A stretch of 64,000 nucleotides of DNA from Nitrososphaerota archaeon (GCA_041641295.1 JBEPYO010000001.1:78678-142677), one strand, 5' to 3'. Shown: positions 9,418-63,976, numbered from the stretch's first letter. Made by a program: numbers and translations. Notes: generated from the sequence alone by a model not told the origin.

Positions 9418-10368
9418 TCACGCAGCCCGCGCCCCTTTCTCTTTTAACACCTTGATAAGAGCTGGAATGAACTGGTATAAGTCAATGGGGACCGAGTAGT
9501 CCGCCTCCCTATGGATGGGCGCCGAGGTGTCATTATTCACTGCAACAATTATCCTCGAATTCCTGACCCCCACCATGTGTTGCACCTGCCCCGATATTCC
9601 TATTGCGATGTAGAGCTGGGGGCTAATCCACTTACCAGACAGACCTACATGCTTTTCCTCAGGCATCCAGCCCAAGTCGCTTGCTATCGGCCTGCTACAC
9701 GCCAGCTCCGCGCCTAGAAGCTGGGCAAGATCCTCCGCCATCTTCAAGTCCTCCCGCCTCTTAAATCCGCGGCCGACAGAGACCACAACACGGGCCTTAG
9801 AGAGGTCGGCCCCTTTCCTCTCAATCTTTTCAACTGAGACGCGCCTCAGCCTCAAATTCTCTATAGACGGCCTACTGAGCCTCACAGTCTCAAAGCTGCC
9901 GCCCTCCCTCGCTTGTGGCCGCCTTCCTGTCAACTGAATTGTCAGAAGTGCTGGAAACTTCTTAATGGCTACTCTCTCAACATAGCCTCCCCCGAGGAAT
10001 GGTCTCTCAACTACGAGCCTCCCATCATTAAACTCTAGATTGGTGCAGTCCGTCAGGCATGGTGATGAAAGGTTCTGGGCTGTTCTCGCGAAGAGCTCTC
10101 TATAGATCTTCTTAGATGGTCCGATAACTAGTCCCGGCTCACTATTTCTCACTAGGTCGATAACAATTTTTTCAAGTCCCTCGGGTGGAATCTCGTCAAA
10201 ACCCTCTAGCAGATAGGCTCGCTTCAAACCAAGCGATGCGAGAGACTCCCCGTCAATCACGGCCTCTGGGATAAGCGCCTCCACGACCGAAGCTCCAATC
10301 TGGTCTGCGACAGCCCTCATCTCCAGTAGCTCGTCAAGCTCACCTGCCAAAATCAACACAGAAATCAA
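9418..10368 (-). CDS. etfA: Electron transfer flavoprotein alpha subunit
   Basis: FAD-binding C-terminal signature 'PQLYIAIGISGQVQHMVGVRNSRIIVAVNNDTSAPI'. Overlaps etfB by 4 nt. Confidence 0.85.
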   Translation of the reverse strand: MISVLILAGELDELLEMRAVADQIGASVVEALIPEAVIDGESLASLGLKRAYLLEGFDEIPPEGLEKIVIDLVRNSEPGLVIGPSKKIYRELFARTAQNLSSPCLTDCTNLEFNDGRLVVERPFLGGGYVERVAIKKFPALLTIQLTGRRPQAREGGSFETVRLSRPSIENLRLRRVSVEKIERKGADLSKARVVVSVGRGFKRREDLKMAEDLAQLLGAELACSRPIASDLGWMPEEKHVGLSGKWISPQLYIAIGISGQVQHMVGVRNSRIIVAVNNDTSAPIHREADYSVPIDLYQFIPALIKVLKEKGARAA

Positions 10369-17127: not shown

Positions 17128-17219
17128 GGGGCCGTGGTCTAGCATGGCTATGACGCCAGCCTGGGGAACTACACGGTCCTGAGCGCTGGAGGACGTGGGT
17201 TCAAATCCCACCGGCCCCA
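17128..17219 (+). tRNA. tRNA-Pro (anticodon GGG) containing an intron of about 17 nt in the anticodon loop
   Basis: Acceptor stem GGGGCCG/CGGCCCC with discriminator A. T-arm GTGGG-TTCAAAT-CCCAC. Anticodon stem CCAGC/GCTGG is separated by 24 nt, giving loop 'CTGGGG' plus an intron at about 17166-17182. The 5' end 'GGGGCCGTGG' is like archaeal tRNA-Pro. Confidence 0.65.
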
Positions 17220-17269: not shown

Positions 17270-18361
17270 GTGAATAAATATTTATTTGAAGTGTGGGATA
17301 GAATTTTGAAAGTAATGAGCAGCAGAGAAGAACTTGCCAAAAAATTCCTTGTTAGGAAGTTGAGGCCGATTGAAATAGGTGAGAAAAGTATTAGTCAATT
17401 GCTGGACTCGATGGCTATGACGGGCTTTCAAGGCCGTAGGCTCGGAGAGGTTGTGAAGGTTTGGGAAACGGCATGTAGAACAGAGAATACCGTGATATTC
17501 CTAGGGCTCGCGGGTTCTCTAAGCACGACGGGGCAGAGCGAGATAGTAAAATTCCTCATAAGAAACAGGTTCATCGACGTACTTGTCTCAACCGGTGCAA
17601 ACATAACGGAAGACCTAGTGGAAGCACTTGGCGCCAACTATTACATGGGAGAGCCAAACCTCGACGATTCCGAGCTGTTTAAGGCAGGCATCTATAGATT
17701 CCACGACGTCTTGGTAAGGGATGTAGACTACTTTAAGATGGAAAAGATGCTCGCGGATTTCATGGCGCAGCTTGACCGTACCAAGGTCTATTCTTCAGCC
17801 AAGTTTCTGAATCAGCTTGGGGCTTGGCTTGACGGAAAGGGGGTTAATGGTATTCTGACAGAAGCGTGGAGAAGTGGTGTTCCCGTCTTCTCACCGGCAC
17901 TTGTAGACTCGGGTATGGGGGTAGCATACCTTCTAAACAAGTATCGGCATGGTGAGGGTTTCAAACTCTTGATAGACCATTTCGCCGATTATGAATTAAT
18001 CGTCAAGATAAAGGCGAAATTTGCCGACAGTGCAGCGATCTTTATCGGGGGTGGTGTTCCCAAGGACTTCATACAGCTTGCAGCTGTGGCAGTCGATGTT
18101 CTACTCTCCGGCGACTTATCCAAATACAGGCCTCACAGGTTCGCAGCACAGATAACCACAGACAGCCCCCACTGGGGAGGCCTCTCCGGCGCCACATTGG
18201 ATGAGGCTAAGAGCTGGGGGAAAGAGAGCCCGGACAGCATGACCGTTCAGTGCTTCTGCGACGCCACAATCGGGCTCCCACTCGTGGCTCATGCCCTCTA
18301 CGAGAAGCTAGGGCGAAGAAAAGACCCGCCTGACCTCAGCTGGGTGTTTAAGGAAGGCTAA
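17270..18361 (+). CDS. Deoxyhypusine synthase-like protein, a divergent paralogue. The start may be the internal Met at 17315.
   Basis: DHS fold with 'GGGVPKDF' in place of the canonical GGGxxKHH. The catalytic-Lys region 'EAKSWGKES' is retained. 363 aa. Confidence 0.7.
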   Translation: MNKYLFEVWDRILKVMSSREELAKKFLVRKLRPIEIGEKSISQLLDSMAMTGFQGRRLGEVVKVWETACRTENTVIFLGLAGSLSTTGQSEIVKFLIRNRFIDVLVSTGANITEDLVEALGANYYMGEPNLDDSELFKAGIYRFHDVLVRDVDYFKMEKMLADFMAQLDRTKVYSSAKFLNQLGAWLDGKGVNGILTEAWRSGVPVFSPALVDSGMGVAYLLNKYRHGEGFKLLIDHFADYELIVKIKAKFADSAAIFIGGGVPKDFIQLAAVAVDVLLSGDLSKYRPHRFAAQITTDSPHWGGLSGATLDEAKSWGKESPDSMTVQCFCDATIGLPLVAHALYEKLGRRKDPPDLSWVFKEG

Positions 18362-19311
18362 CCGAGGAGGACAGACGCTAATAGGGGAAGAATCAAGGTG
18401 GCGTCTCCGTAGATTGTGACTTTTCTAGCGTGGGTTTTCAGTTTGCCCCAGCTTATGGCCTCCTTCAGTGGCGCCCCTGTCAGGCTTCCATCCCACTCGT
18501 TCCCGGTCGTGACGTAGACTGCATAGTCTAGGCCACCCCCAAACTGGTTCAGCCACAAGAGGTGATGCTTGCTTATTCCACCCCCTATTATGAGGCCGCC
18601 CCTCCTGACCTCTTTGAAGAGGTTATCGGAGAGCCTGTCATAGTCCCTGAAGAGATTTAGCCTAAAGTCTCGATGCGTTGTGTGAAACATCCAGAGCTGG
18701 GTTCCAGCGGCACCATCCATTATACCGGGGACTACCACGTCCACGTTAGCCTCAGCGGCAGCCCTTAAAATCGACCCCTCTGGAAGACGCCTCCCTATCT
18801 CCCTAGCAAGCTCGATAGTCCCAATCTCTCTCACCCCCTTGTCGTAAAGCTCGTTCAGTAGACCGAGCATGAAGCGCTCAATCGCGAGCCCGTAGTTCTC
18901 CTCAGGCACAATGACCGAGCCGACACGGTGTAGTCCATGCTCACGGAGCTCCCCATCATCCAACTCGAAGGCGCCCTTGTAATAGTTGCCCAGACTCCTT
19001 GCAATGTCATGGTCAATGGTCCCGCAGGTAGTCACCACGTATTTGAAGATTCCTCGCCTTATGATGCTGGCCAAGACGCCTCTTAGACCGGTGGCTGTGA
19101 GGGAGCCTACGAAAGAGAGCCATCGCACACATTCCCGGTCACTAACCATCTCTCTAAGTATTCTGCACCCTTCAGCAAGGTAACTGGCCATAAATCCTCC
19201 CGAGGCTGCGAAATGCTCCACTAGATTGCTTATCGTTGTGTCGGCTGAGAGGGTGTAGTCCTTAACAGGCTCCTCTCCTTTGAAACCGCCCCTCCTATCC
19301 TTATATCTCAC
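18358..19311 (-). CDS. dys: Deoxyhypusine synthase, canonical
   Basis: 'IIGGGISKHHLLWLN' and the catalytic-Lys motif 'EAISWGKLK'. 317 aa. Convergent with the paralogue and overlapping it by 4 nt. Confidence 0.75.
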   Translation of the reverse strand: MRYKDRRGGFKGEEPVKDYTLSADTTISNLVEHFAASGGFMASYLAEGCRILREMVSDRECVRWLSFVGSLTATGLRGVLASIIRRGIFKYVVTTCGTIDHDIARSLGNYYKGAFELDDGELREHGLHRVGSVIVPEENYGLAIERFMLGLLNELYDKGVREIGTIELAREIGRRLPEGSILRAAAEANVDVVVPGIMDGAAGTQLWMFHTTHRDFRLNLFRDYDRLSDNLFKEVRRGGLIIGGGISKHHLLWLNQFGGGLDYAVYVTTGNEWDGSLTGAPLKEAISWGKLKTHARKVTIYGDATLILPLLASVLLG

Positions 19312-33790: not shown

Positions 33791-34249
33791 ATGCCTCACT
33801 GGGAGTACTCTGTGAAAGGACTTGACCCAGCTACGTCGGTCAAAGCCTCTCTTAGGGAGGTTGATTTATCTCCTAAGTGGAGTCGGGAGGTCTGTGCCGC
33901 AATAAAGGGGCTGAAGCTCAAAGAAGCCAGGAGGCTTCTTGAGGACGTGGTGAAGAGGAAGAGGATGATACCATACCGGCGATATAGGAAGCTGAGGGCG
34001 CATCACTCCCAGACAAAAGGGCCTGGCGGATATCCCGTCAAGGTTGCCAAGCATCTACTAAAGCTCTTAGACTCTCTAGAAGCTAACGCCGAGTTCAAAG
34101 GCCTAGACACTGACAGGCTAGTGCTGGTGCACGCTCAGGCTCATAAGGCCAGGGTGATCAAGAAGTTTTTCCCGAGGGCCTTCGGCAGGGCGACACCACA
34201 TAACAGGACATTTGTTCACATCGAGGTTGCGGCGGTCCAAGCGCCTTGA
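33791..34249 (+). CDS. rpl22: 50S ribosomal protein L22 (uL22)
   Basis: 'ASLREVDLSPKWSREVCAAIKGLKLKEARRLLEDVV', 152 aa. Confidence 0.85.
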   Translation: MPHWEYSVKGLDPATSVKASLREVDLSPKWSREVCAAIKGLKLKEARRLLEDVVKRKRMIPYRRYRKLRAHHSQTKGPGGYPVKVAKHLLKLLDSLEANAEFKGLDTDRLVLVHAQAHKARVIKKFFPRAFGRATPHNRTFVHIEVAAVQAP

Positions 34250-34304
34250 ACCTTTTCCCCGGGATCAATCCTTAAATAGAGTAGGAAATGCACAATGATG
34301 TAGA

Positions 34305-34928
34305 TTGGTCACTACAACGGCGAAGATCCTTCAGAAGAATATCAAGCGTGCTGAGGTAATAGAGTTTATCAAGAATCGTCTGAAGGACGCCCTTATTGGC
34401 GACGTGTCAATAACAACCTCACCGATTGGGACAAACATTATAATCTACTGCATGAAGCCCGGCCTCGTTATAGGGACACGAGGTAAAACGATAAAGTCTC
34501 TCCAAGAGGAGGTTGAGAAGAGGTTTGGTCTCGAGAATGTTCAGATTTCTGTCTCTGAGATTGAGGTCCCTGAGCTTAACCCTGAGGTTATGGCTCAGAG
34601 GATAGCTCAGGCCATTGCGAGCGGGGTTCGGTGGAGGAGAGTTGCCTTCTGGGCTCTAAGGAGGATAATGGACGCTGGGGCGATAGGCGCAGAGACGATA
34701 ATATCTGGTAAGCTAACCTCGGCCCGTTCAAGGTCGGAGAAATTCACCGCCGGGCTTATGCCCAAGTCCGGCGAGTTTGCAAAATATGTTCGGGTGGGGG
34801 TAGCTCATGTCCAGCTTGCTACAGGAATATACGGCGTGAAGGTTAAAATATATCCGCCTGACGCCCCCCTGCCTGAACAAGTATCTGTATCTGTGAAAAA
34901 GGAAGCAGAGGAATCCGGTGGTGGGTGA
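34305..34928 (+). CDS. rps3: 30S ribosomal protein S3 (uS3), with a TTG start
   Basis: KH domain 'MKPGLVIGTRGKTIKSLQEEVEKRFG', 207 aa. Confidence 0.85.
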   Translation: MVTTTAKILQKNIKRAEVIEFIKNRLKDALIGDVSITTSPIGTNIIIYCMKPGLVIGTRGKTIKSLQEEVEKRFGLENVQISVSEIEVPELNPEVMAQRIAQAIASGVRWRRVAFWALRRIMDAGAIGAETIISGKLTSARSRSEKFTAGLMPKSGEFAKYVRVGVAHVQLATGIYGVKVKIYPPDAPLPEQVSVSVKKEAEESGGG

Positions 34929-35137
34929 GTATGGTGAGGGAGGTTAGGGAGCTGAGGGAGAAGAGTGTTGATGAGCTGAGGGAGGAGCTTGAGGCTGCGC
35001 GTACAGAACTCCGTAACCTCAAAGTCAAGCTATCTATGGCGGGACAAGGAGAAAACACTTCAAACATCCGAAATCTCAAGAGGAGAATAGCGAGGATACT
35101 GACAATACTCAAGGAAAAACAGCTTGAAAAGAAGTAA
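34925..35137 (+). CDS. rpl29: 50S ribosomal protein L29 (uL29)
   Basis: 'LREKSVDELREELEAARTELRNLKVKLSMAGQ'. 70 aa, overlapping the rps3 stop by 4 nt. Confidence 0.85.
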   Translation: MSMVREVRELREKSVDELREELEAARTELRNLKVKLSMAGQGENTSNIRNLKRRIARILTILKEKQLEKK

Positions 35138-35399
35138 AAGAATAGTTTCGCTTATCGGATACCACTGCACAGTGATTAAAAAGTCTGGCAGTAGTCGTTT
35201 CGAGGGCCTTATAGTAGGGGAGACCGCTAACACTGTTTTATTACAAACTTGGAAGGGCCTGAAGCGGATCCCTAAGAGGGAGCATCTTTTCGAGGTCGTG
35301 GTTGGGGGTGTGAAGTTTATCGCTAATGGGGAGGATCTGGTGGGAAGACCTGCACAGAATCTTAAACGGATTAGGCATAACTGGCTTAAACGCTCCTAA
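35124..35399 (+). CDS. rnp1: RNase P protein component 1 (Rpp29/Pop4 homologue)
   Basis: 91 aa with 'FEGLIVGETANTVLLQT...KRIPK', at the canonical position between L29 and S17. Confidence 0.7.
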   Translation: MKRSKRIVSLIGYHCTVIKKSGSSRFEGLIVGETANTVLLQTWKGLKRIPKREHLFEVVVGGVKFIANGEDLVGRPAQNLKRIRHNWLKRS

Positions 35400-35474
35400 C
35401 GGGGGTAGAGTCCGAGCGTTTATCCTTATTAAAACGGATATTGTTCTGATTTGTAAAAGGCTGGCTGAGCAGAA

Positions 35475-35828
35475 ATGTCGGGGAGACAGGTTGCGAACAT
35501 AGGCATCGAAGTTAAGCCCCCACAGGGAGAGTGTGATGACGAGAACTGCCCATTTCACGGCTCACTGAGGGTACGGGGCATAATTCTCACCGGGAGGGTT
35601 CATAAAAAGCTAATGCACAAGGCTATAGTCGTGGAGAGGATCATAACTATTTACGTCAAGAAGTATAAGCGATACATGAGGAGGCGGTCAAGGATCTCGG
35701 CACACTTACCACCCTGCATTAATGTAGAGGTAGGCGATATTGTGAGGATTGCGGAGACTAGGCCTATCTCGAAGACCATCAGTTTTGTTGTTATTGAAAA
35801 CTTGGGGAGGGGTGGGGTAAGTGTCTAA
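35475..35828 (+). CDS. rps17: 30S ribosomal protein S17 (uS17)
   Basis: 'NCPFHGSLRVRGIILTGRVHKKLMHKAIVVE...VEVGDIVRIAETRPISKTISFVV'. Confidence 0.85.
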   Translation: MSGRQVANIGIEVKPPQGECDDENCPFHGSLRVRGIILTGRVHKKLMHKAIVVERIITIYVKKYKRYMRRRSRISAHLPPCINVEVGDIVRIAETRPISKTISFVVIENLGRGGVSV

Positions 35829-36255
35829 GCGGTCTAGGGCTGTTGCTGAGGTAGGTGTTCTGCTTCGGAGACCAAACATACCTAGGACCATCAATAAGGG
35901 AGCTTACGTGCTGTGTGCGGATAACACGGGGGCGCAGGTTCTCAAGGTAATTCAGGTGATTGGGCTTAAACAGAGGCTGCGAAGACAGCCAGCCGCGGGG
36001 GTAGGCGACCTAGTGGCAGTAACTGTGAAGAAAGGGCCTATCGACTTGAGGAAGAAGGTGATGCACGCCGTCATCATTAGGCAGAAAAAGCCCTACAGGC
36101 GTCCAGACGGGACTTGGATAGCGTTCGAGGACACTGCAGCTGTCCTTGTAACGCCTGAGGGAGATGTGAAGGGGTCTGAGATTAAGGGGCCGGTTGCCCG
36201 CGAGGCGGCTGAGAGATGGTCAAAGATCGCAAATATTGCATCGATAATAGTGTGA
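35821..36255 (+). CDS. rpl14: 50S ribosomal protein L14 (uL14), with a GTG start
   Basis: 'GAYVLCADNTGAQVLKVIQVIG', 144 aa. Confidence 0.85.
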   Translation: MSKRSRAVAEVGVLLRRPNIPRTINKGAYVLCADNTGAQVLKVIQVIGLKQRLRRQPAAGVGDLVAVTVKKGPIDLRKKVMHAVIIRQKKPYRRPDGTWIAFEDTAAVLVTPEGDVKGSEIKGPVAREAAERWSKIANIASIIV

Positions 36256-36262
36256 TGGTGAG

Positions 36263-36631
36263 ATGATGAAGCAGGTATCCCAACCAAAAGATCCTTCCAA
36301 GCAAAGGCTCATGCTACATAATGCACCCAAGCATATCCTCCCCAAGCTAATGTCAGCTCACCTCTCTAAGGAATTGAGGGAAAAGTATGGGAGGCGGTCT
36401 CTCCCACTCAGGGTGGGGGATACGGTGAAAGTGATGCGTGGTGAGTATAGTGGTGTTCAGGGAAAGGTTAAAAGAGTCAACAGAGAGAGGCAAGTGGTGT
36501 ATATTGAGGGGCTTACGAGGAAGCGCGCCGATGGAAGGGTTGTCGACATACCTGTCCACGCATCAAATCTAATGATTATAGCGTTGAATCTCGACGATAA
36601 GCTTAGGAAGGAGAAGTTGGGTGAGGGGTAG
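36263..36631 (+). CDS. rpl24: 50S ribosomal protein L24 (uL24)
   Basis: KOW motif 'LRVGDTVKVMRGEYSGVQGKVKRVN' and 'LMSAHLSKELREKYG'. Confidence 0.85.
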   Translation: MMKQVSQPKDPSKQRLMLHNAPKHILPKLMSAHLSKELREKYGRRSLPLRVGDTVKVMRGEYSGVQGKVKRVNRERQVVYIEGLTRKRADGRVVDIPVHASNLMIIALNLDDKLRKEKLGEG

Positions 36632-36637
36632 GGGGGC

Positions 36638-37354
36638 ATGCATCTGAAGAGACTTGCCGCACCAAGTGTTTACAAAATTCCTAGGAAGGGATACAAGTTT
36701 GCGCCGAGACCAAAGCCTGGCAGGCATCCGTTAGAGGCGTCCATCCCGCTCGCGGTTATAGTTAGGGATTATCTGGGGGTTGCGGCAACTTATGCTGAGG
36801 CGAAGAAAATTGTCCACTTAGGCAAGGTCCTAGTTGATGGGGAGGTTATAACTGAGCCGAGGTTTGGAGTAGGCCTTATGGACGTAATATCAATTCCTTC
36901 ACTTGGGAAGACATTTCGTGTCCTACCCCGATTTAAACGGGGGCTCGAACTCTTGGAGATAGGTGAGGATGAGGCGACGATTAAGCCTTGCCAGGTGAAG
37001 CGTAAACAGCATGTAAACGGTGGCTATATCCAGTTTACTCTCCACGATGGTAGGAATCTTCAGTTCCCGCCCAACAGCCCAGAGGTCAGCTCGATAAAGA
37101 CTGGTGATACATTTGTGATAGAGTTGCCGAGTCAGGCTGTGAAGGGAGTTATCAAGAGGGTTGAGGGTGCATACTGCCTGATTACCTCGGGTTCTAGGAT
37201 GGGGCTTCACGGGAGGCTTATCTCAATGGATGCTGAGAGAAGATATCCCGCTAAGAGGCACGCGGTCATAGAGTCTAGCATGGGCAGGATAACCACTATA
37301 CTCGACTACTTCATGCCTGTTGGTGAGGATAAGCCATGGATAGCGCTATTCTAG
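36638..37354 (+). CDS. rps4e: 30S ribosomal protein S4e
   Basis: 'MHLKRLAAPSVYKIPRKGYKFAPRPKPGRHP', 238 aa. Confidence 0.9.
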   Translation: MHLKRLAAPSVYKIPRKGYKFAPRPKPGRHPLEASIPLAVIVRDYLGVAATYAEAKKIVHLGKVLVDGEVITEPRFGVGLMDVISIPSLGKTFRVLPRFKRGLELLEIGEDEATIKPCQVKRKQHVNGGYIQFTLHDGRNLQFPPNSPEVSSIKTGDTFVIELPSQAVKGVIKRVEGAYCLITSGSRMGLHGRLISMDAERRYPAKRHAVIESSMGRITTILDYFMPVGEDKPWIALF

Positions 37355-37860
37355 AGAACCCAATGCGTAGAATCAGGGTCAGCAAGGTGGTTGTCAACTC
37401 TTCCATAGGAGAGGGTGGAGTAAAGCTAGAGCGTGCGGTAAAGATACTCGAGATGTTGACCGGCCAGAAGCCTTCAGTCAGAAAGGCGAAGAAGACAATC
37501 CGCGGATTTGGTATTAGGAAGGGAGAGCCGATTGCCGCGGTAGTTACGCTGCGGGGTGTGAGGGCAGTAGAGTTTCTCAGAAAGGCCCTCGCGGCAGTAG
37601 GTAATAGACTATCCCGCGACAATTTCGATGAATACGGAAACTTTGCTTTTGGCATAAAAGAGCACCTCGAGTTTCCAGGTACGAGGTACGATCCCGAACT
37701 GGGGATAATCGGGATGGATGTTATAGTGCATCTGGCTAGGCCTGGGCTGAGGGTTTCAACGCGACGGATTAAACGGTCGCGGATTGGCAAATCTCACAGG
37801 CTTACACGGGAGGAAGGTATAGAGTTCGTTAGAAACGAGTTTGGAACTCAGATAGACTAA
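37336..37860 (+). CDS. rpl5: 50S ribosomal protein L5 (uL5)
   Basis: 'ENPMRRIRVSKVVVNSSIGEGG', 174 aa. Confidence 0.9.
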   Translation: MDSAILENPMRRIRVSKVVVNSSIGEGGVKLERAVKILEMLTGQKPSVRKAKKTIRGFGIRKGEPIAAVVTLRGVRAVEFLRKALAAVGNRLSRDNFDEYGNFAFGIKEHLEFPGTRYDPELGIIGMDVIVHLARPGLRVSTRRIKRSRIGKSHRLTREEGIEFVRNEFGTQID

Positions 37861-37965
37861 GGATTCTTTATACGCTCGGAGTATCTGGGGTTAGCTTGTA
37901 GTCTCTTATCTGGACTTTTTGCCAACTGATATATACGGCGATGCATAGTGGCCTAAAGCAGACGC

Positions 37966-40560
37966 ATGGGATACTGGGCCGCCGGCACCCTGCTGGTCCT
38001 TTTTCTATGCACCATAATATGGGCTGGGCTGCCTCTTCCCAACATAGAGGCGCATCGGCTCCAGTACGACGGGGTAGGTTACAGCTCACAGCAAAGAATC
38101 GAGTTATCCGCTGAGGAAAGCATCGAGATAATTGGGGGGTGGGGTAAATCCACCCTAACAGTCCTCATTGTCCCTAGTGTGGACGAACGTTTGACGAGTT
38201 GGGTAGGCAGGTCTGTCGACTGGTGGAAGAGAGCCAAAGAGACTTTTACAGCACTTCACGGCTATGAATTTTTGAATAGGCTTGAGTTTGTGAAGCTGGT
38301 TCGAGGCGTAAATGGCACATCGGGAGACATCGTTATAGAATACGTGGAAAGCTTGGGAGAGCGGGTATGTGGGATTACATATGTCAGCGTAGTTGATGGG
38401 GAGATTAGACAAGCATCGATCCAGCTATCGCTGGAATGTATCAGAGGTCGGGAAGAGTATGCGTTGGTAGTTGGAATGCATGAGTTCGGTCATGCACTAG
38501 GGTTAGGGCACACTAACAACTCGGCGGACTTGATGTATGATTACCTAGTCCCCGGCTCCAGACCCTCAACCCTAAACCTCTATGCCTTAGCGGTGATTTA
38601 CAGATGGCTCGAGCGGGGAATTTTCAAAAGTCCCCCAGATAGTGTATCCCTTCCAGAGGGCATAGAGTATATTCAGCTACTAGACGCTAACGGAGAACCC
38701 GTCAAATTCAGGGTAAGGATATACCTTCTGCTCGGAGACAACGAGCTCCTCTACAGGACAATATTCGTACCCGCAGGCCAGAGCTTCACCATAAACGTCA
38801 ACACCATGATTCAATACGCAGAGGACGCTTGGGAGAGATACGTCTTCACCGGTTGGAGGACGAGAGGGTCGGGACAAACACTCTCTACAAGCACTTCGCT
38901 AACACTCAAGCCGACAGGCCACACAGACTTTATCGCGGTGTACGACGTCGAGTACAGGGTGGTTGTTGAATATCTCAACAGCACTATTCTCGACGGCTGG
39001 ATTAGAAGGGGTGGTAGGGTGTTAGTTAACGCAACGGAGGTGATATATCTATCTACCGATGAGAGGCTGGTCTTTGTCGGTTGGAGGGGCGCGATAAACA
39101 GCACCAGCGTAAGGCTTGAGCTTGTCGTAGAGTCGCCTATCCGCCTTTATGCGGTTTATAGAAGGGAGTTCCTCGTAGATGTTGTATCGGACTACGGGGA
39201 GCCCTCAGTCTCAGGCTGGTGGCCTGAGGGGTCGCTCCTCAACATAACCATCAACCCCAGTGTCGTATACCTCTCAGAGGATGCGAGGATGGTGCTCAGT
39301 GGGTTCAACGGCTCCCACCCCGCCCTAACCCCCCACCTCCTCATCAACCTAACCGAACCAGTACACCTCTCAGCAGTATGGAAACAGCAGTTTCTCGTGA
39401 CTGTCAGTAGTCCTGGGGGAGAGATACAGGAACACGTGTGGGCGGACAACGCATCCAAGATAACAGTCGCCGTGCCTAGAGAGATATTCTGGGATAATGG
39501 ATCAAAGGCTGTCTTCGAGGGGTGGCTAAATCCAGGTCTGGCCCCAGAGCCCACGCAGAGTCTGACTATTACCGGTCCTAGAGTTTTAGCCCCTTTCTAC
39601 GAGAGGTATTATCTCGTGGAATTTGTCTCCGCTTGGAAGGTTGATACGCCGACAAAGTGGTATAGGCGTGGGGAGGTCTTAGAGTTTGAGGCCCCCAACT
39701 CTGTGGAGCTGGATGAAGGATTGAGGGCAGTATTCATTGGCACCTCCGAAGGTGCTGAGAGAACTCTGAGGTTTGTGGTCAAGGGGCCCAGGGTCGTAGT
39801 GATGTATTGGAGAGAAGAGGCGAGAATAACTGTCAAGAATCCGGTGGGAGGGGTGGATAAAGTAATCTGGGCCCCCATAAACCAGGTTATCCAGCTGGAT
39901 ACCCCCTCCATAATACCCGTCAGCCCCGATGAGGCGCTCGAGTTCGTTAAATGGACCGGCAGCCTCGAGTCCAGAGAGAGGACCATCTCATTCATAGTTA
40001 ATGGAAGCATTGAACTCAGACCCGAGTATAGGCGCGTATATCGCGTCATTTTCAACACCGTACCTCCTCTCGATGTTGAGCTACTGTTTCAGGAAGGGTC
40101 GGGCAGGCCCTACAGGGTGTGGAGCGGCGAGTCGATATGGCTGCCTGAGGGCAGCCTAGCAATTCGGGGGGTGTATTGGAAGGGCCTTGATGTTAAGAAT
40201 GCCTCAGAAGTATATGTAAACGGGGCGGGCATCTACCCGGTTAGGCTCGCCGTGAGGAGCTTGAACGTTGAGGTTTTAGACATGCTCGGCATGCCCGCAC
40301 CCTTCTACGAGGTCCAAGCCCTTCGCCCCGACACCATTATAGAATCCCGCGCCATTTCAGATTCTTCTGGGCTAGCTAGGCTGGACGCTGTCAGCCCATC
40401 GGTTAGCAGGGTGGAGGCTAGATGGATGGGTTTTGAAGCCTCTGGAGAGCTGGGCTCGCAGAGAATACAGGTTAGGGTCCCCATAAGCTTCTATACCCTC
40501 CTCCTAGCATCTGCTATACTGATCACTACGTCTGCGATACAGGCTTATAGGAGGTTCTAG
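37966..40560 (+). CDS. Large cell-surface protein: an N-terminal signal/TM, a matrixin-like (metzincin, M10-type) zinc metalloprotease domain, six or more repeated modules of about 75 aa, and a C-terminal TM anchor
   Basis: N-terminal hydrophobic '[18 protein letters not shown]'. Catalytic motif '[26 protein letters not shown]' (HExxHxxGxxH plus a Met-turn). Recurrent 'V[FL]xGW/F' motifs ([60 protein letters not shown]). C-terminal '[23 protein letters not shown]'. Confidence 0.65.
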
Positions 40561-40994
40561 CGCCTCGGCTTCTTAGCCTTACCCAGAACAAGTAGTTTTA
40601 GAGGAACGCCGTTGACAGTAACGACCTCATATCTGACACCAGGCAAGTCGCCGTAGCTCTTTCCCAAAGTCCCCCCTATCCCCTGGATAATAACCTCGTC
40701 ATGCTCGTCAACTACATTAAGGGCACCGTCGCCGGGCAGGAAGGCGGTCACAACCTTACCATTCTTCGTCAGCTGCACCCGGACACACTTCCTAACTGCG
40801 CTGTTAGGCTGCCGCGACTCTATTCCCTTCTTCTCTATTACGATTCCCTTAGCCATAGGAGCGCCCTCAAGGGGGTCGAACTTCTCCTTGAGGTTAAGCA
40901 TCCTAATCTTGTACCTCCTCTGACTCCACCTAAACCTCTTCCTAACCTTAATCAGCTGCCTAGCAGCGAACTCTCCATTCCCCATTTCTGCCAT
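40557..40994 (-). CDS. rps12: 30S ribosomal protein S12 (uS12)
   Basis: '[28 protein letters not shown]...[15 protein letters not shown]', 145 aa. Confidence 0.9.
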
Positions 40995-41087: not shown

Positions 41088-41210
41088 TGTCCCGGCGGCA
41101 GGATTTGAACCTGCGGCCCTCCGGTTTCTGTTAGCCCGGTAGGCTGGCAAAGGCGCGGCAGGATGCCGGCCTCTACAGCCGGATGCTCTACCAGGCTGAG
41201 CTACGCCGGG
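41088..41210 (-). tRNA. tRNA-Tyr (anticodon GTA) with an intron of about 46 nt
   Basis: On the minus strand, the 5' end reads 'CCCGGCGTAGCTCAGCCTGGTAGAGC' (the C1:G72 pair typical of archaeal tRNA-Tyr). Anticodon stem TCCGG/CCGGA with loop CTGTAG|intron|A. T-arm GCAGG-TTCAAAT-CCTGC, acceptor 3' CGCCGGG plus A. A TATA-like 'TTTAATA' lies about 25 bp upstream at forward 41238-41250. Confidence 0.7.
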
Positions 41211-62083: not shown

Positions 62084-62128
62084 GCGCGTCTAAACATATA
62101 TAGGGTTCTTTAGGCTGATAAGAGTTAG

Positions 62129-62302
62129 ATGGGGATTAGAGAGTTCGCCAGATCGGTCATCACAGTGTTTAGGGTCGCTCAGAAGCCCACCAAAGAGACA
62201 TACCTCACCTTTGCCCGAATAGCCCTAATAGGAGTGCTATTACTTGGCGTCATCTCCTTTCTTGTTAGATTCCTGATGATAGCTCTCCAAGGTGGGGTGT
62301 GA
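62129..62302 (+). CDS. secE: Protein translocase subunit SecE (Sec61 gamma). Below the ORF-track length cutoff, so found by reading the gap.
   Basis: 57-aa ORF 'MGIREFARSVITVFRVAQKPTKETYLTFARIALIGVLLLGVISFLVRFLMIALQGGV' with a single C-terminal TM. Its stop overlaps the spt5 start (ATGA), the conserved secE-spt5-L11 order. Confidence 0.7.
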   Translation: MGIREFARSVITVFRVAQKPTKETYLTFARIALIGVLLLGVISFLVRFLMIALQGGV

Positions 62303-62775
62303 TGAGCCAGACTGAGAAGAAGTTTCAGATCTTCGCGATAAGAACCACAGTGGGACAGGAGAAGAACGTGGCAAGGCTCCTCTCAAACAGGATAGACACT
62401 GAGGCTGGGGACATAGCGTCAATATTCATTCTCCCGATGCTTAAGGGTTACGTGTTTATAGAGGGGGTGGACAAGGACCGAATAGCCCTCCTCACCCAAG
62501 GAATGATGCATGTTAAATCGAGGCCGATCACATCAGTCTCTATAGAAGAGCTGAAGCAACACATCGTCGAGAGGCCCGTGATAGACACTATCAACGAGGG
62601 TGAGATGGTCGAGGTTATTGCCGGGCCACTCAGGGGTGTGACTGGCAAGGTTCTACGCATCGACAGGCAGAAGAACTCGGTCACGATAGAGTTAACCGAG
62701 AGTATATATCCTCTCCCAATCTCTGTCCCGGCTCGACAGCTCAGGCCGATTCGACAGCAGCAGGAGACCCGCTAA
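62299..62775 (+). CDS. spt5: Transcription elongation factor Spt5 (NusG homologue)
   Basis: NGN domain 'IFAIRTTVGQEKNVARLL...GYVFIEG' and KOW 'GEMVEVIAGPLRGVTGKVLRID'. 158 aa. Confidence 0.85.
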   Translation: MMSQTEKKFQIFAIRTTVGQEKNVARLLSNRIDTEAGDIASIFILPMLKGYVFIEGVDKDRIALLTQGMMHVKSRPITSVSIEELKQHIVERPVIDTINEGEMVEVIAGPLRGVTGKVLRIDRQKNSVTIELTESIYPLPISVPARQLRPIRQQQETR

Positions 62776-62829
62776 CCCTCCCTCTAGATTTTACAAGTAT
62801 TTATTGTGGATTCCGAATAGGGATTAAGC

Positions 62830-63333
62830 GTGGCTGAAAGGACATACAAGTTCTTGGTAGAGGGCGGCAAAGCGACTGCAGGGCCTCCGATAGGGCCTAC
62901 ACTTACACCCCTAGGAATCAATGTACTACAGCTTATAGAGGAGATAAATCGGAAGACCGCGGAGTTCAAAGGAATGCACGTTACAGTGATTGTGAAAGTA
63001 GACTCGGATACTAAGTCTTTCAGCGTCGAGGTGGGTGTACCAAGCACCATAGCCCTTATCGCGAAGGAGGCAGGTATTGAGAAGGGATCGAGCACAGCTC
63101 ATAAACAGCCTGTGGGAAACCTCTCGCTGGACAGTCTAATTAAGATCGCTAAACTGAAGATGGAGCAGTTGAGGTCTACCTCTCTAAAGGCTGCCGTGCT
63201 CTCTGTGGCAGGGACGTGTGTGAGCATGGGTGTAACAATTGATGGGAAGAACCCGAAGGAGTTCATAGAGGAGGTTAGGATGGGTAAATACGATGAATTG
63301 CTCTCCGCGACTATCTCTTCTTCTCAGGCTTAA
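62830..63333 (+). CDS. rpl11: 50S ribosomal protein L11 (uL11)
   Basis: 'VEGGKATAGPPIGPTLTPLGINV' and 'GVTIDGKNPKE'. 167 aa. Confidence 0.9.
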   Translation: MAERTYKFLVEGGKATAGPPIGPTLTPLGINVLQLIEEINRKTAEFKGMHVTVIVKVDSDTKSFSVEVGVPSTIALIAKEAGIEKGSSTAHKQPVGNLSLDSLIKIAKLKMEQLRSTSLKAAVLSVAGTCVSMGVTIDGKNPKEFIEEVRMGKYDELLSATISSSQA

Positions 63334-63976
63334 TCTTAACTGGTGGGCTCATGCTTAACTTCAAGACAATGGACTTGATGTTAGCCCACCCGTTTTCAAG
63401 TCTCGAAACAACCCTCTCCACCACAGCCCTGGCATTATCCAAGATCTGATCTACACTCATCTCCTCTGTCCCGATGATGCACATGACCTGAGGGACCTTA
63501 CGCACTCTAGCTACTACTGTTCTCTTGTATCTCGCTGCAAACTCGTCGATATCTACGTTAGCCGGTATGGGGATAGGCGTCTTCCCCACCCCTCCTAGAG
63601 CGGCGCCGAGTGCTCGCGCAGCAACGGGGACGAGCTGAGGCTCGATAAGGAAATGGTCAAACTCTCGTACAAGCCTCTTGGCAGCCTTCTTATTCCCCAC
63701 CAACCCCTCTATCTCCTGTCTCTCAAAGACCCTGTCAACGTGTTGAGACCTAGACGCCCTCAGAGCTAACTCGCCGGTGGCTACAACTGCTATGCGCTTG
63801 GATGCAGACCCAAGGCCATGGGGCAGCTCTATCATTTCGCTGAAACGCTTCTCCGGCTTGCTCACATCGACATCCTTCAAGTTTATCACAAGCTCTACCG
63901 ATTGAGTAAAGTTCCGCTTCTGCCTCTTCTCCAGCGCCTCACGAACTCCCCTTTCCAAGTCTATGACAGTAGACAT
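63311..63976 (-). CDS. rpl1: 50S ribosomal protein L1 (uL1), on the strand opposite to rpl11
   Basis: 'RNFTQSVELVINLKDVDVSKPEKRF...ELPHGLGSASKRIAVVATGE' and 'DHFLIEPQLVPVAARALGAALG...KTPIPIP'. Collinear with M. jannaschii L1 from memory. The C-terminus 'LSMSPPVKIKPEKKR' was verified by reverse-complement reading of 63311-63360. Confidence 0.85.
   Translation of the reverse strand: MSTVIDLERGVREALEKRQKRNFTQSVELVINLKDVDVSKPEKRFSEMIELPHGLGSASKRIAVVATGELALRASRSQHVDRVFERQEIEGLVGNKKAAKRLVREFDHFLIEPQLVPVAARALGAALGGVGKTPIPIPANVDIDEFAARYKRTVVARVRKVPQVMCIIGTEEMSVDQILDNARAVVERVVSRLENGWANIKSIVLKLSMSPPVKIKPEKKR

Follow-up and report, generated by a model that had tools for sequence, protein, structure and literature searches.

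The genes under study lie close to the end of a 64,000-nucleotide stretch of DNA from a Nitrososphaerota archaeon (the window), where rpl11 and rpl1, coding for the ribosomal proteins uL11 and uL1, are read from opposite strands and share their last 23 nt (Table 1). An earlier note, made from the sequence alone, had described this convergent pair, and its description was borne out: both open reading frames are intact, and both families were identified by Pfam and NCBIfam profiles. The three L1 peptides quoted there (RNFTQSVELVINLKDVDV, ELPHGLG and VKIKPEKKR) were all found in the minus-strand translation. The canonical secE-spt5-rpl11 order on the plus strand was likewise corroborated by Pfam matches of SecE and Spt5 upstream of L11.

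Table 1. Features of the L11/L1 locus and of further ribosomal-protein genes; positions refer to the window, and to contig L001 where this is named.
Feature	Position	Strand	Remarks
S10/spc fragment L22-S3-L29-Rpp29-S17-L14-L24-S4e-L5	33791-37860	+	no S14-S8-L6 continuation
864-aa protein	37966-40560		after L5; only a short matrixin motif
S12	40557-40994	-	solitary, without NusA or S7
TATA-like box CTAAACATATATAGG upstream of secE	62090..62104	+	~40 nt before secE ATG
secE (Sec61-gamma)	62129..62302	+	57 aa; Pfam SecE 4e-06, over curated cut-off
spt5/nusG	62299..62775	+	158 aa; Pfam Spt5-NGN 3.8e-19, KOW 6.7e-09
TATA-like box AAGTATTTATTGTGG in spt5-L11 spacer	62795..62809	+	candidate promoter for L11 alone
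rpl11 (uL11)	62830..63333	+	167 aa, GTG start; Pfam and NCBIfam
Shared 3' ends of L11 and L1	63311..63333	.	23 nt; L11 tail ...TISSSQA*, L1 tail ...IKPEKKR*
rpl1 (uL1)	63311..63976	-	221 aa, ATG start; inverted relative to L11 and L10; Pfam and NCBIfam
Inverted repeat 63338-63349 / 63383-63394, ending in TTTT 63393-63396	63338..63396	+	inside antisense L1
Proximal 24 nt upstream of L1	63977..64000	-	short leader with AAGG
TATA-like box ATTATAAACCTATTA upstream of L1	would-be window 64003-64017; L001 9960-9974	-	just past window end

Over the L11 protein, two Pfam domains exceeded their cut-offs (Ribosomal_L11_N, PF03946, 7.6e-20, and Ribosomal_L11, PF00298, 4.3e-22), and the NCBIfam archaeal L11 profile NF002232 scored 211 bits (cut-off 162) with positions 1-160 of its 164 matched, a normal length for an archaeal L11. 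The L1 protein covered the complete Pfam profile Ribosomal_L1 (PF00687, positions 1-198 of 198; 3e-46, 157.9 bits against a cut-off of 32.2), reached 227.8 bits with NCBIfam archaeal L1 NF003244 (cut-off 203) and aligned end to end with its best solved relative, L1 of M. jannaschii (3.1e-44). The columns that are invariant among 20 L1 homologues, including F23, Q25, E47, E50, L51 and P52, are present. In pairwise comparison with three relatives, dN/dS was 0.02-0.06, with dS extending from 0.55 to saturation (up to 2.5), which argues for a real gene and against a chance ORF. No second L1 copy was found within the 64-kb window. The full-length domain, the invariant residues and the low dN/dS together indicate that L1 is a working gene under strong purifying selection, and not the decayed pseudogene that the earlier note had named as a possible undoing of its own reading.

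The exact L1 protein is also encoded on a 102.7-kb JGI contig (L001), and rpl10 and rpl12, for which the region beyond 63976 had been pointed out as the place to look, were located there past the window end and confirmed by Pfam. Read in window orientation, the order on this contig is secE -> spt5 -> L11 -> <- L1 <- (232-aa gene) L10 -> <- alaS <- L12, with L11 on the plus, L1 on the minus, L10 on the plus and L12 on the minus strand. L11 and L10, the ribosomal-protein genes on either side of L1, point the same way, so that the flip concerns L1 alone. L11 and L1 still adjoin each other directly and strand alone has changed; the statement that the L11-L1 linkage is broken thus holds for co-orientation, which is lost, and fails for adjacency, which is kept. 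The canonical single-strand order L11, L1, L10, L12 is absent from L001, as is the canonical adjacency, the 232-aa gene splitting L1 from L10 and alaS splitting L10 from L12, and L12-alaS is inverted as a block. Because of this strand arrangement, one common transcript over L11-L1-L10-L12 is impossible. A second convergent overlap is found within the same ribosomal cluster, where alaS and L10 (+ and - in L001) share 41 nt (L001:8306-8346; 23-35 nt in relatives).

The 232-aa protein encoded between L10 and L1, just past the window end (L001:9245-9943, plus strand in L001), had no match in Pfam or NCBIfam. It has 1593 homologues, with 52-57% identity across Odin-, Kor-, Bathy- and Freyarchaeota and Sulfolobales. 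The best PDB matches of its AlphaFold model (pLDDT 91) were the HhH-GPD DNA glycosylases Tm1821, MjOgg, MagIII and Mag2 (TM 0.5-0.6); a GVG hairpin and P162-D163 are invariant, and no lysine follows the hairpin. The protein looks like an uncatalogued glycosylase family, probably monofunctional.

For the comparison among relatives, 80 loci from species-representative genomes (a sample without ammonia-oxidising Nitrososphaeria) were fetched with a profile of 20 L1 homologues, and eight marker proteins were mapped onto them by tblastn. The closest relative, at 95% L1 identity, was 'Calditenuaceae archaeon HR02' (L002), by which the window is assigned to GTDB genus HRBIN02, named 'Candentenecus' in PMC12979851; the Calditenuaceae belong to the Caldarchaeales, formerly 'Aigarchaeota'. 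According to tblastn, L11 is convergent with L1 in all five Calditenuaceae-like loci of the set (L001-L005), and the convergent pair was found in at least 10 independent Calditenuaceae assemblies with L1 identities of 55-95%. Besides HR02, L1 is inverted in L003 (94%), L082 (84%), L083 (73%), L084 (68%), L085 (66%), Calditenuis fumarioli (L004/L087, 59%), L005 (59%) and L086 (55%), as well as in a second assembly of the same species as the window (L089). A relative at 53% L1 identity has the collinear L11-L1 arrangement.

In all outgroup loci that contain both genes (~75; ~74 within the set mapped by tblastn), L11 immediately precedes L1 and shares its strand, among them Pelearchaeum, Terraquivivens, Geocrenenecus, Wolframiiraptor, Benthortus and ~65 Bathyarchaeia. 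In the Bathyarchaeia, a single strand carries Spt5-L11-L1-L10-L12(-alaS). In the Caldarchaeales outside the Calditenuaceae, secE-spt5-L11-L1-L10 comes first and alaS and L12 lie beyond it on the opposite strand, and from this arrangement that of the Calditenuaceae differs solely in the strand of L1; the L12-alaS inversion occurs in all Caldarchaeales sampled. The simplest form of the Calditenuaceae locus is that of L005, in which L10 and L1 diverge from a 127-nt spacer with two TATA-like boxes, and the 232-aa gene between L10 and L1 is found in the HRBIN02-like subclade. The synteny comparison which the earlier note had proposed therefore separates an inverted L1 across the Calditenuaceae from a collinear one in the outgroup, a distribution that marks the inversion as a fixed, inherited character of a clade comprising at least the genera Calditenuis and HRBIN02 and several further lineages.

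Further rearrangements were observed at individual loci. At L084 and L085 (66-68% L1 identity), L12 is parted from alaS by an additional block inversion, in which L12, a 107-aa gene, a V-ATPase subunit and an acylphosphatase (L084:1379-3346, L085:1354-3414) are inverted again with respect to the window arrangement; evidently, small inversions have arisen here repeatedly. In Calditenuis, spt5-secE and L10 are gone from the locus and the convergent L11/L1 pair is kept. In Calditenuis fumarioli, L1 is preceded on its own strand by a tRNA-Ala(UGC) at a distance of 77 nt (L004:9852-9924). The L11 call of L086 (8664-8966; 55%) has 100 aa and is without the N-terminal domain, tblastn covering the C-terminal part only, and may reflect a frameshift or an assembly error.

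The suggestion that the inversion would fit a genome with scrambled ribosomal-protein clusters agrees with the inverted L12-alaS block, the S10/spc fragment, which stops after L5, and the solitary S12. The layout of 33791-40994 is the same on a 1.26-Mb NCBI contig (L090). Elsewhere in the window, Rfam placed tRNAs at 41090-41210 (minus strand, 121 nt) and 17128-17219 (plus strand, 92 nt), neither of which was reported by ARAGORN; both are probably archaeal tRNAs with introns. Two adjacent deoxyhypusine-synthase (PF01916) paralogues are convergent with a 4-nt overlap at 17270-19311.

The 23 nt shared by rpl11 and rpl1 encode just the non-conserved tails of two proteins that are both of normal length. 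Overlaps within the family measure 23, 23, 23, 26, 29, 29, 17 and 8 nt, the 17-nt one belonging to Calditenuis fumarioli (L004), and the only member without a 3' overlap is L086, where a 6-nt gap was found. Among the other convergent pairs of the window, 9 of 11 overlap, by 4-32 nt (median spacer -5 nt), as compared with median spacers of +75 nt for divergent and +36 nt for tandem pairs. With overlaps so frequent in convergent pairs, that of L11 and L1 appears to be an ordinary by-product of tight gene packing and no regulatory device. In a test for functional cis-antisense pairing, neither overlap length (-6 to 29 nt) nor tail sequence was conserved beyond the genomic background. The 23-nt sharing of convergent ends thus stands as reported, and its reading as a special antisense feature does not, overlapping ends being the rule where genes converge in this genome.

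In this genus, the 160 nt beyond each of the two stops hold no tract of T5 or longer, so that the antisense overlap of the real transcripts could exceed 23 nt and perhaps be much longer. The inverted repeat downstream of the L11 stop, with arms of 12 nt and a T4 that lies 60 nt past the stop and is kept in the four closest relatives, is a weak candidate for a 3'-end signal of the L11 transcript; the T4 falls within codons of the conserved LENG motif of L1, and its conservation may therefore be driven by the protein.

Promoter-like elements were found ahead of the genes of the cluster. The 57-nt spacer upstream of L1 contains ATTATAAACCTATTA, with TTATAAA at -40 to -34 from the ATG. In seven genomes of 66-95% L1 identity, a box of the form (G/A)TTATAAACCTATTAG stands ~40 nt ahead of the L1 ATG with little or no change, whereas the spacer around it is randomised. 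This near invariance at saturated dS indicates selection on the L1 box. L001, L003 and L082 share the box upstream of secE, and L083, L085 and L005 share it in part, with a diverging flanking spacer; the L11 box ends ~20 nt upstream of the GTG, and a T/A-rich box occupies the same position in seven family members. Comparable conserved boxes precede secE, L11, L10 and L12. Between L10 and the 232-aa gene, a single palindromic CTATTTAAAT lies in the middle of the 66-nt divergent spacer (L001:9179-9244; also in L003 and L082-L085), at ~30-35 nt from either start codon, which points to one bidirectional TATA element serving both genes. By the general geometry of archaeal promoters, with the box ~40 nt from the ATG, L1 transcription is predicted to start ~10-15 nt before the ATG, leaving a very short leader.

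TATA-like boxes also occur in the L11-L1 spacer of collinear relatives (ATTTTTATAAT in Bathyarchaeia, TCCTTAAATC in Wolframiiraptor). L1 therefore probably owned a promoter before the event and carried it along on inverting, in which case the inversion would have needed no new regulatory sequence. The relocated L1 promoter that the inversion had been taken to imply accordingly keeps one half of its support, namely a promoter-like element of its own; relocation need not have occurred, as collinear relatives have a spacer box already. In the Bathyarchaeia L008, L011, L013 and L023 (~9920-10000), a strongly conserved ATTTTTATAAT is followed by a conserved leader CCATCAATGGCRCGGAG and then by the L1 ATG, and this leader could be a leader-type L1 site.

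Among archaeal L1 sites, the one studied best is the mimic of 23S rRNA (H77/H78) that Methanococcus carries within the L1 ORF. Its two helices, formed by the codons for residues ~9-24, were mapped codon by codon, with reference to a 49-nt fragment that we take to be the M. jannaschii L1 site; this fragment translates in frame to VKEARELAKPRNFT, matching the protein of 1cjs/1u63, and forms 14 of 14 pairs. The L1 ORF of the window forms 3 of 6 pairs in helix 1 and 3 of 8 in helix 2, no better than controls slid by 1-3 nt. Across ~90 TACK loci, inverted and collinear alike, the Methanococcus-type L1 mRNA site is absent (helix 2 with at most 6 of 8 pairs, usually 0-3). Rfam at gathering thresholds gave no leader or other RNA near L1 or L11 in the window, and a permissive search with Rfam 15 gave no relevant ribosomal-protein leader near L1, L11, L10 or L12 up to E = 5 over L001 4500-12000. 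The look for an L1-binding mRNA or 23S rRNA-mimic site thus came back empty for Rfam leaders and in-ORF helices. Since the Methanococcus-type mimic, the sole archaeal site tested, is missing from inverted and collinear relatives alike, it cannot be claimed that a feedback site once existed here and was then lost, and the idea of lost or altered L1 feedback finds no support. Kraft et al. reportedly did not confirm an L1 site in Sulfolobus either, in 1999.

Among known arrangements, the E. coli L11 operon (rplKA) has its L1 site upstream of rplK and couples the translation of the two genes. The L11/L1 gene pair is the same in the window, but L11-L1 translational coupling is impossible here, no Rfam leader matched the region, and the predicted leaders measure ~10 nt. 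The cluster of Sulfolobus is said to be transcribed as one long transcript (work of Kraft et al. from 1999). For Sulfolobus acidocaldarius, a passage of PMC10833476 referring to Ramirez et al. 1994 describes secE-nusG(spt5)-L11-L1-L10-L12 as an operon. Compared with this canonical archaeal cluster, these genes remain neighbours here and secE-spt5-L11 retain their order and orientation, whereas L1 lies on the opposite strand, L12-alaS forms an inverted block, and in this genus an HhH-GPD-like gene of 232 aa stands between L10 and L1. In the MvaL1 operon of Methanococcus vannielii, L1 regulates its own translation through the in-ORF 23S rRNA mimic. There, rplK lies apart from rplA, and the operon consists of L1-L10-L12 (PMC3616713). 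L1 is transcriptionally independent of L11 in both organisms, but in the Calditenuaceae it is uncoupled from L10 and L12 too, and the mRNA site (codons 9-24) is not conserved. The Heimdallarchaeia, in which L11 is split from L1-L10-L12 (PMC10833476), are another archaeal lineage with broken L11-L1 co-orientation; there, however, L11 moved elsewhere and L12-L10-L1 stayed together, whereas here L11 and L1 are adjacent but convergent, and strand parts L1 from L10. With exceptions in M. vannielii and the Heimdallarchaeia, the L11-L1 linkage, which the earlier note had called universally conserved, is common rather than universal. No description of L1 flipped in place, with L11 and L1 still adjoining yet convergent, was found in the literature searched by cluster name, where PMC10833476 alone came up.

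The sequences show the gene arrangement, the lineages that share it, an intact L1 under selective constraint and conserved promoter-like boxes; on this basis we propose that a segment of ~0.75 kb, comprising rpl1 and its own TATA promoter, inverted in place in the common ancestor of the Calditenuaceae. The starting array would have been secE-spt5-L11-L1-L10 (+) / alaS-L12 (-), and the event would have turned it into secE-spt5-L11 -> <- L1, then L10 -> <- alaS <- L12. If every ribosomal gene of the cluster has a promoter to itself and a very short leader, the flip would have cost little, and would for this reason have become fixed and been inherited since. We infer promoter use, leader length, transcript ends and the neutrality of the event from the sequence. 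To this joint account of history, own-promoter tolerance and inheritance we assign a probability of about 0.8.

An assembly artefact, that is, a truly collinear genome with a local mis-join or inversion in the contig, might be suspected since the window derives from a metagenome. The identical layout nevertheless recurs in the at least 10 independent assemblies, which come from different samples, pipelines and laboratories (JGI, NCBI, ENA, Logan) and span the whole range of L1 identities; in addition, both reading frames pass through each other undisrupted and the junction sequence is conserved among close relatives. On account of this recurrence L1 is genuinely inverted, the misassembly that the earlier note had allowed for is effectively refuted already, and its chance of being right is negligible. 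A decaying pseudogene or redundant copy on the minus strand, with the working rpl1 elsewhere, is extremely improbable: the search for a second copy covered the 64-kb window and ~10 kb of flank, which leaves some room for it, but the same single locus was found in all relatives, no other copy occurs in the window, and the full-length profile matches, the invariant residues and the strong constraint on L1 all oppose decay.

Two successive larger inversions with a shared breakpoint at the L11/L1 junction, in place of a single-gene flip, would be in keeping with the other local inversions nearby (L12-alaS in all Caldarchaeales, the L12-to-acylphosphatase block in L084 and L085) and with the want of inverted repeats flanking L1: among repeats able to mediate the flip only short, weak pairs were found, with a single 12-nt pair in coding sequence. 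Such a history is very unlikely, as it takes two events with precisely re-used breakpoints where one suffices, and an intermediate arrangement was seen in none of ~90 loci. A functional role of the overlap, by which cis-antisense pairing or polymerase collision would couple the output of L11 and L1 and replace the lost operon coupling, is unlikely on the whole. In its favour, the pair is convergent and overlapping in 10 of 11 family loci, it is kept in Calditenuis even though all other cluster genes moved away, and strong T-tract terminators are missing after either stop, which makes a longer antisense overlap plausible. Set against this, the length varies from 8 to 29 nt, with the gap in L086, the overlapping tails have no sequence conservation, and overlap is the default for convergent pairs here, including alaS/L10. 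The retention in Calditenuis might point to selection on the pair in place of pure neutrality, but the physical overlap itself would explain it just as well, since a break within the shared stretch would truncate a gene. Little credence is given to the more elaborate proposal that the stalk-region genes L11, L1, L10 and L12 are four independent transcription units and that the pair is retained because 3' overlap or collision balances L11:L1 output in replacement of L1 translational feedback; if true, stoichiometry would be controlled here in a new, post-operon manner.

Under the single in-place inversion, the flip of L1 is a fresh instance of a known phenomenon, the disassembly of operons by rearrangement, and no new kind of system; it reveals no new mechanism, the arrangement being real, ancient and clade-defining yet mechanistically unremarkable. 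As a clean, rare genomic change it marks the Calditenuaceae and offers a possible synapomorphy for the placement of new genomes. If each gene has its own promoter, the locus would represent a natural experiment in which the L11-L1-L10-L12 array was dismantled gene by gene with its function kept, and it bears on the stability of ribosomal-protein operons elsewhere.
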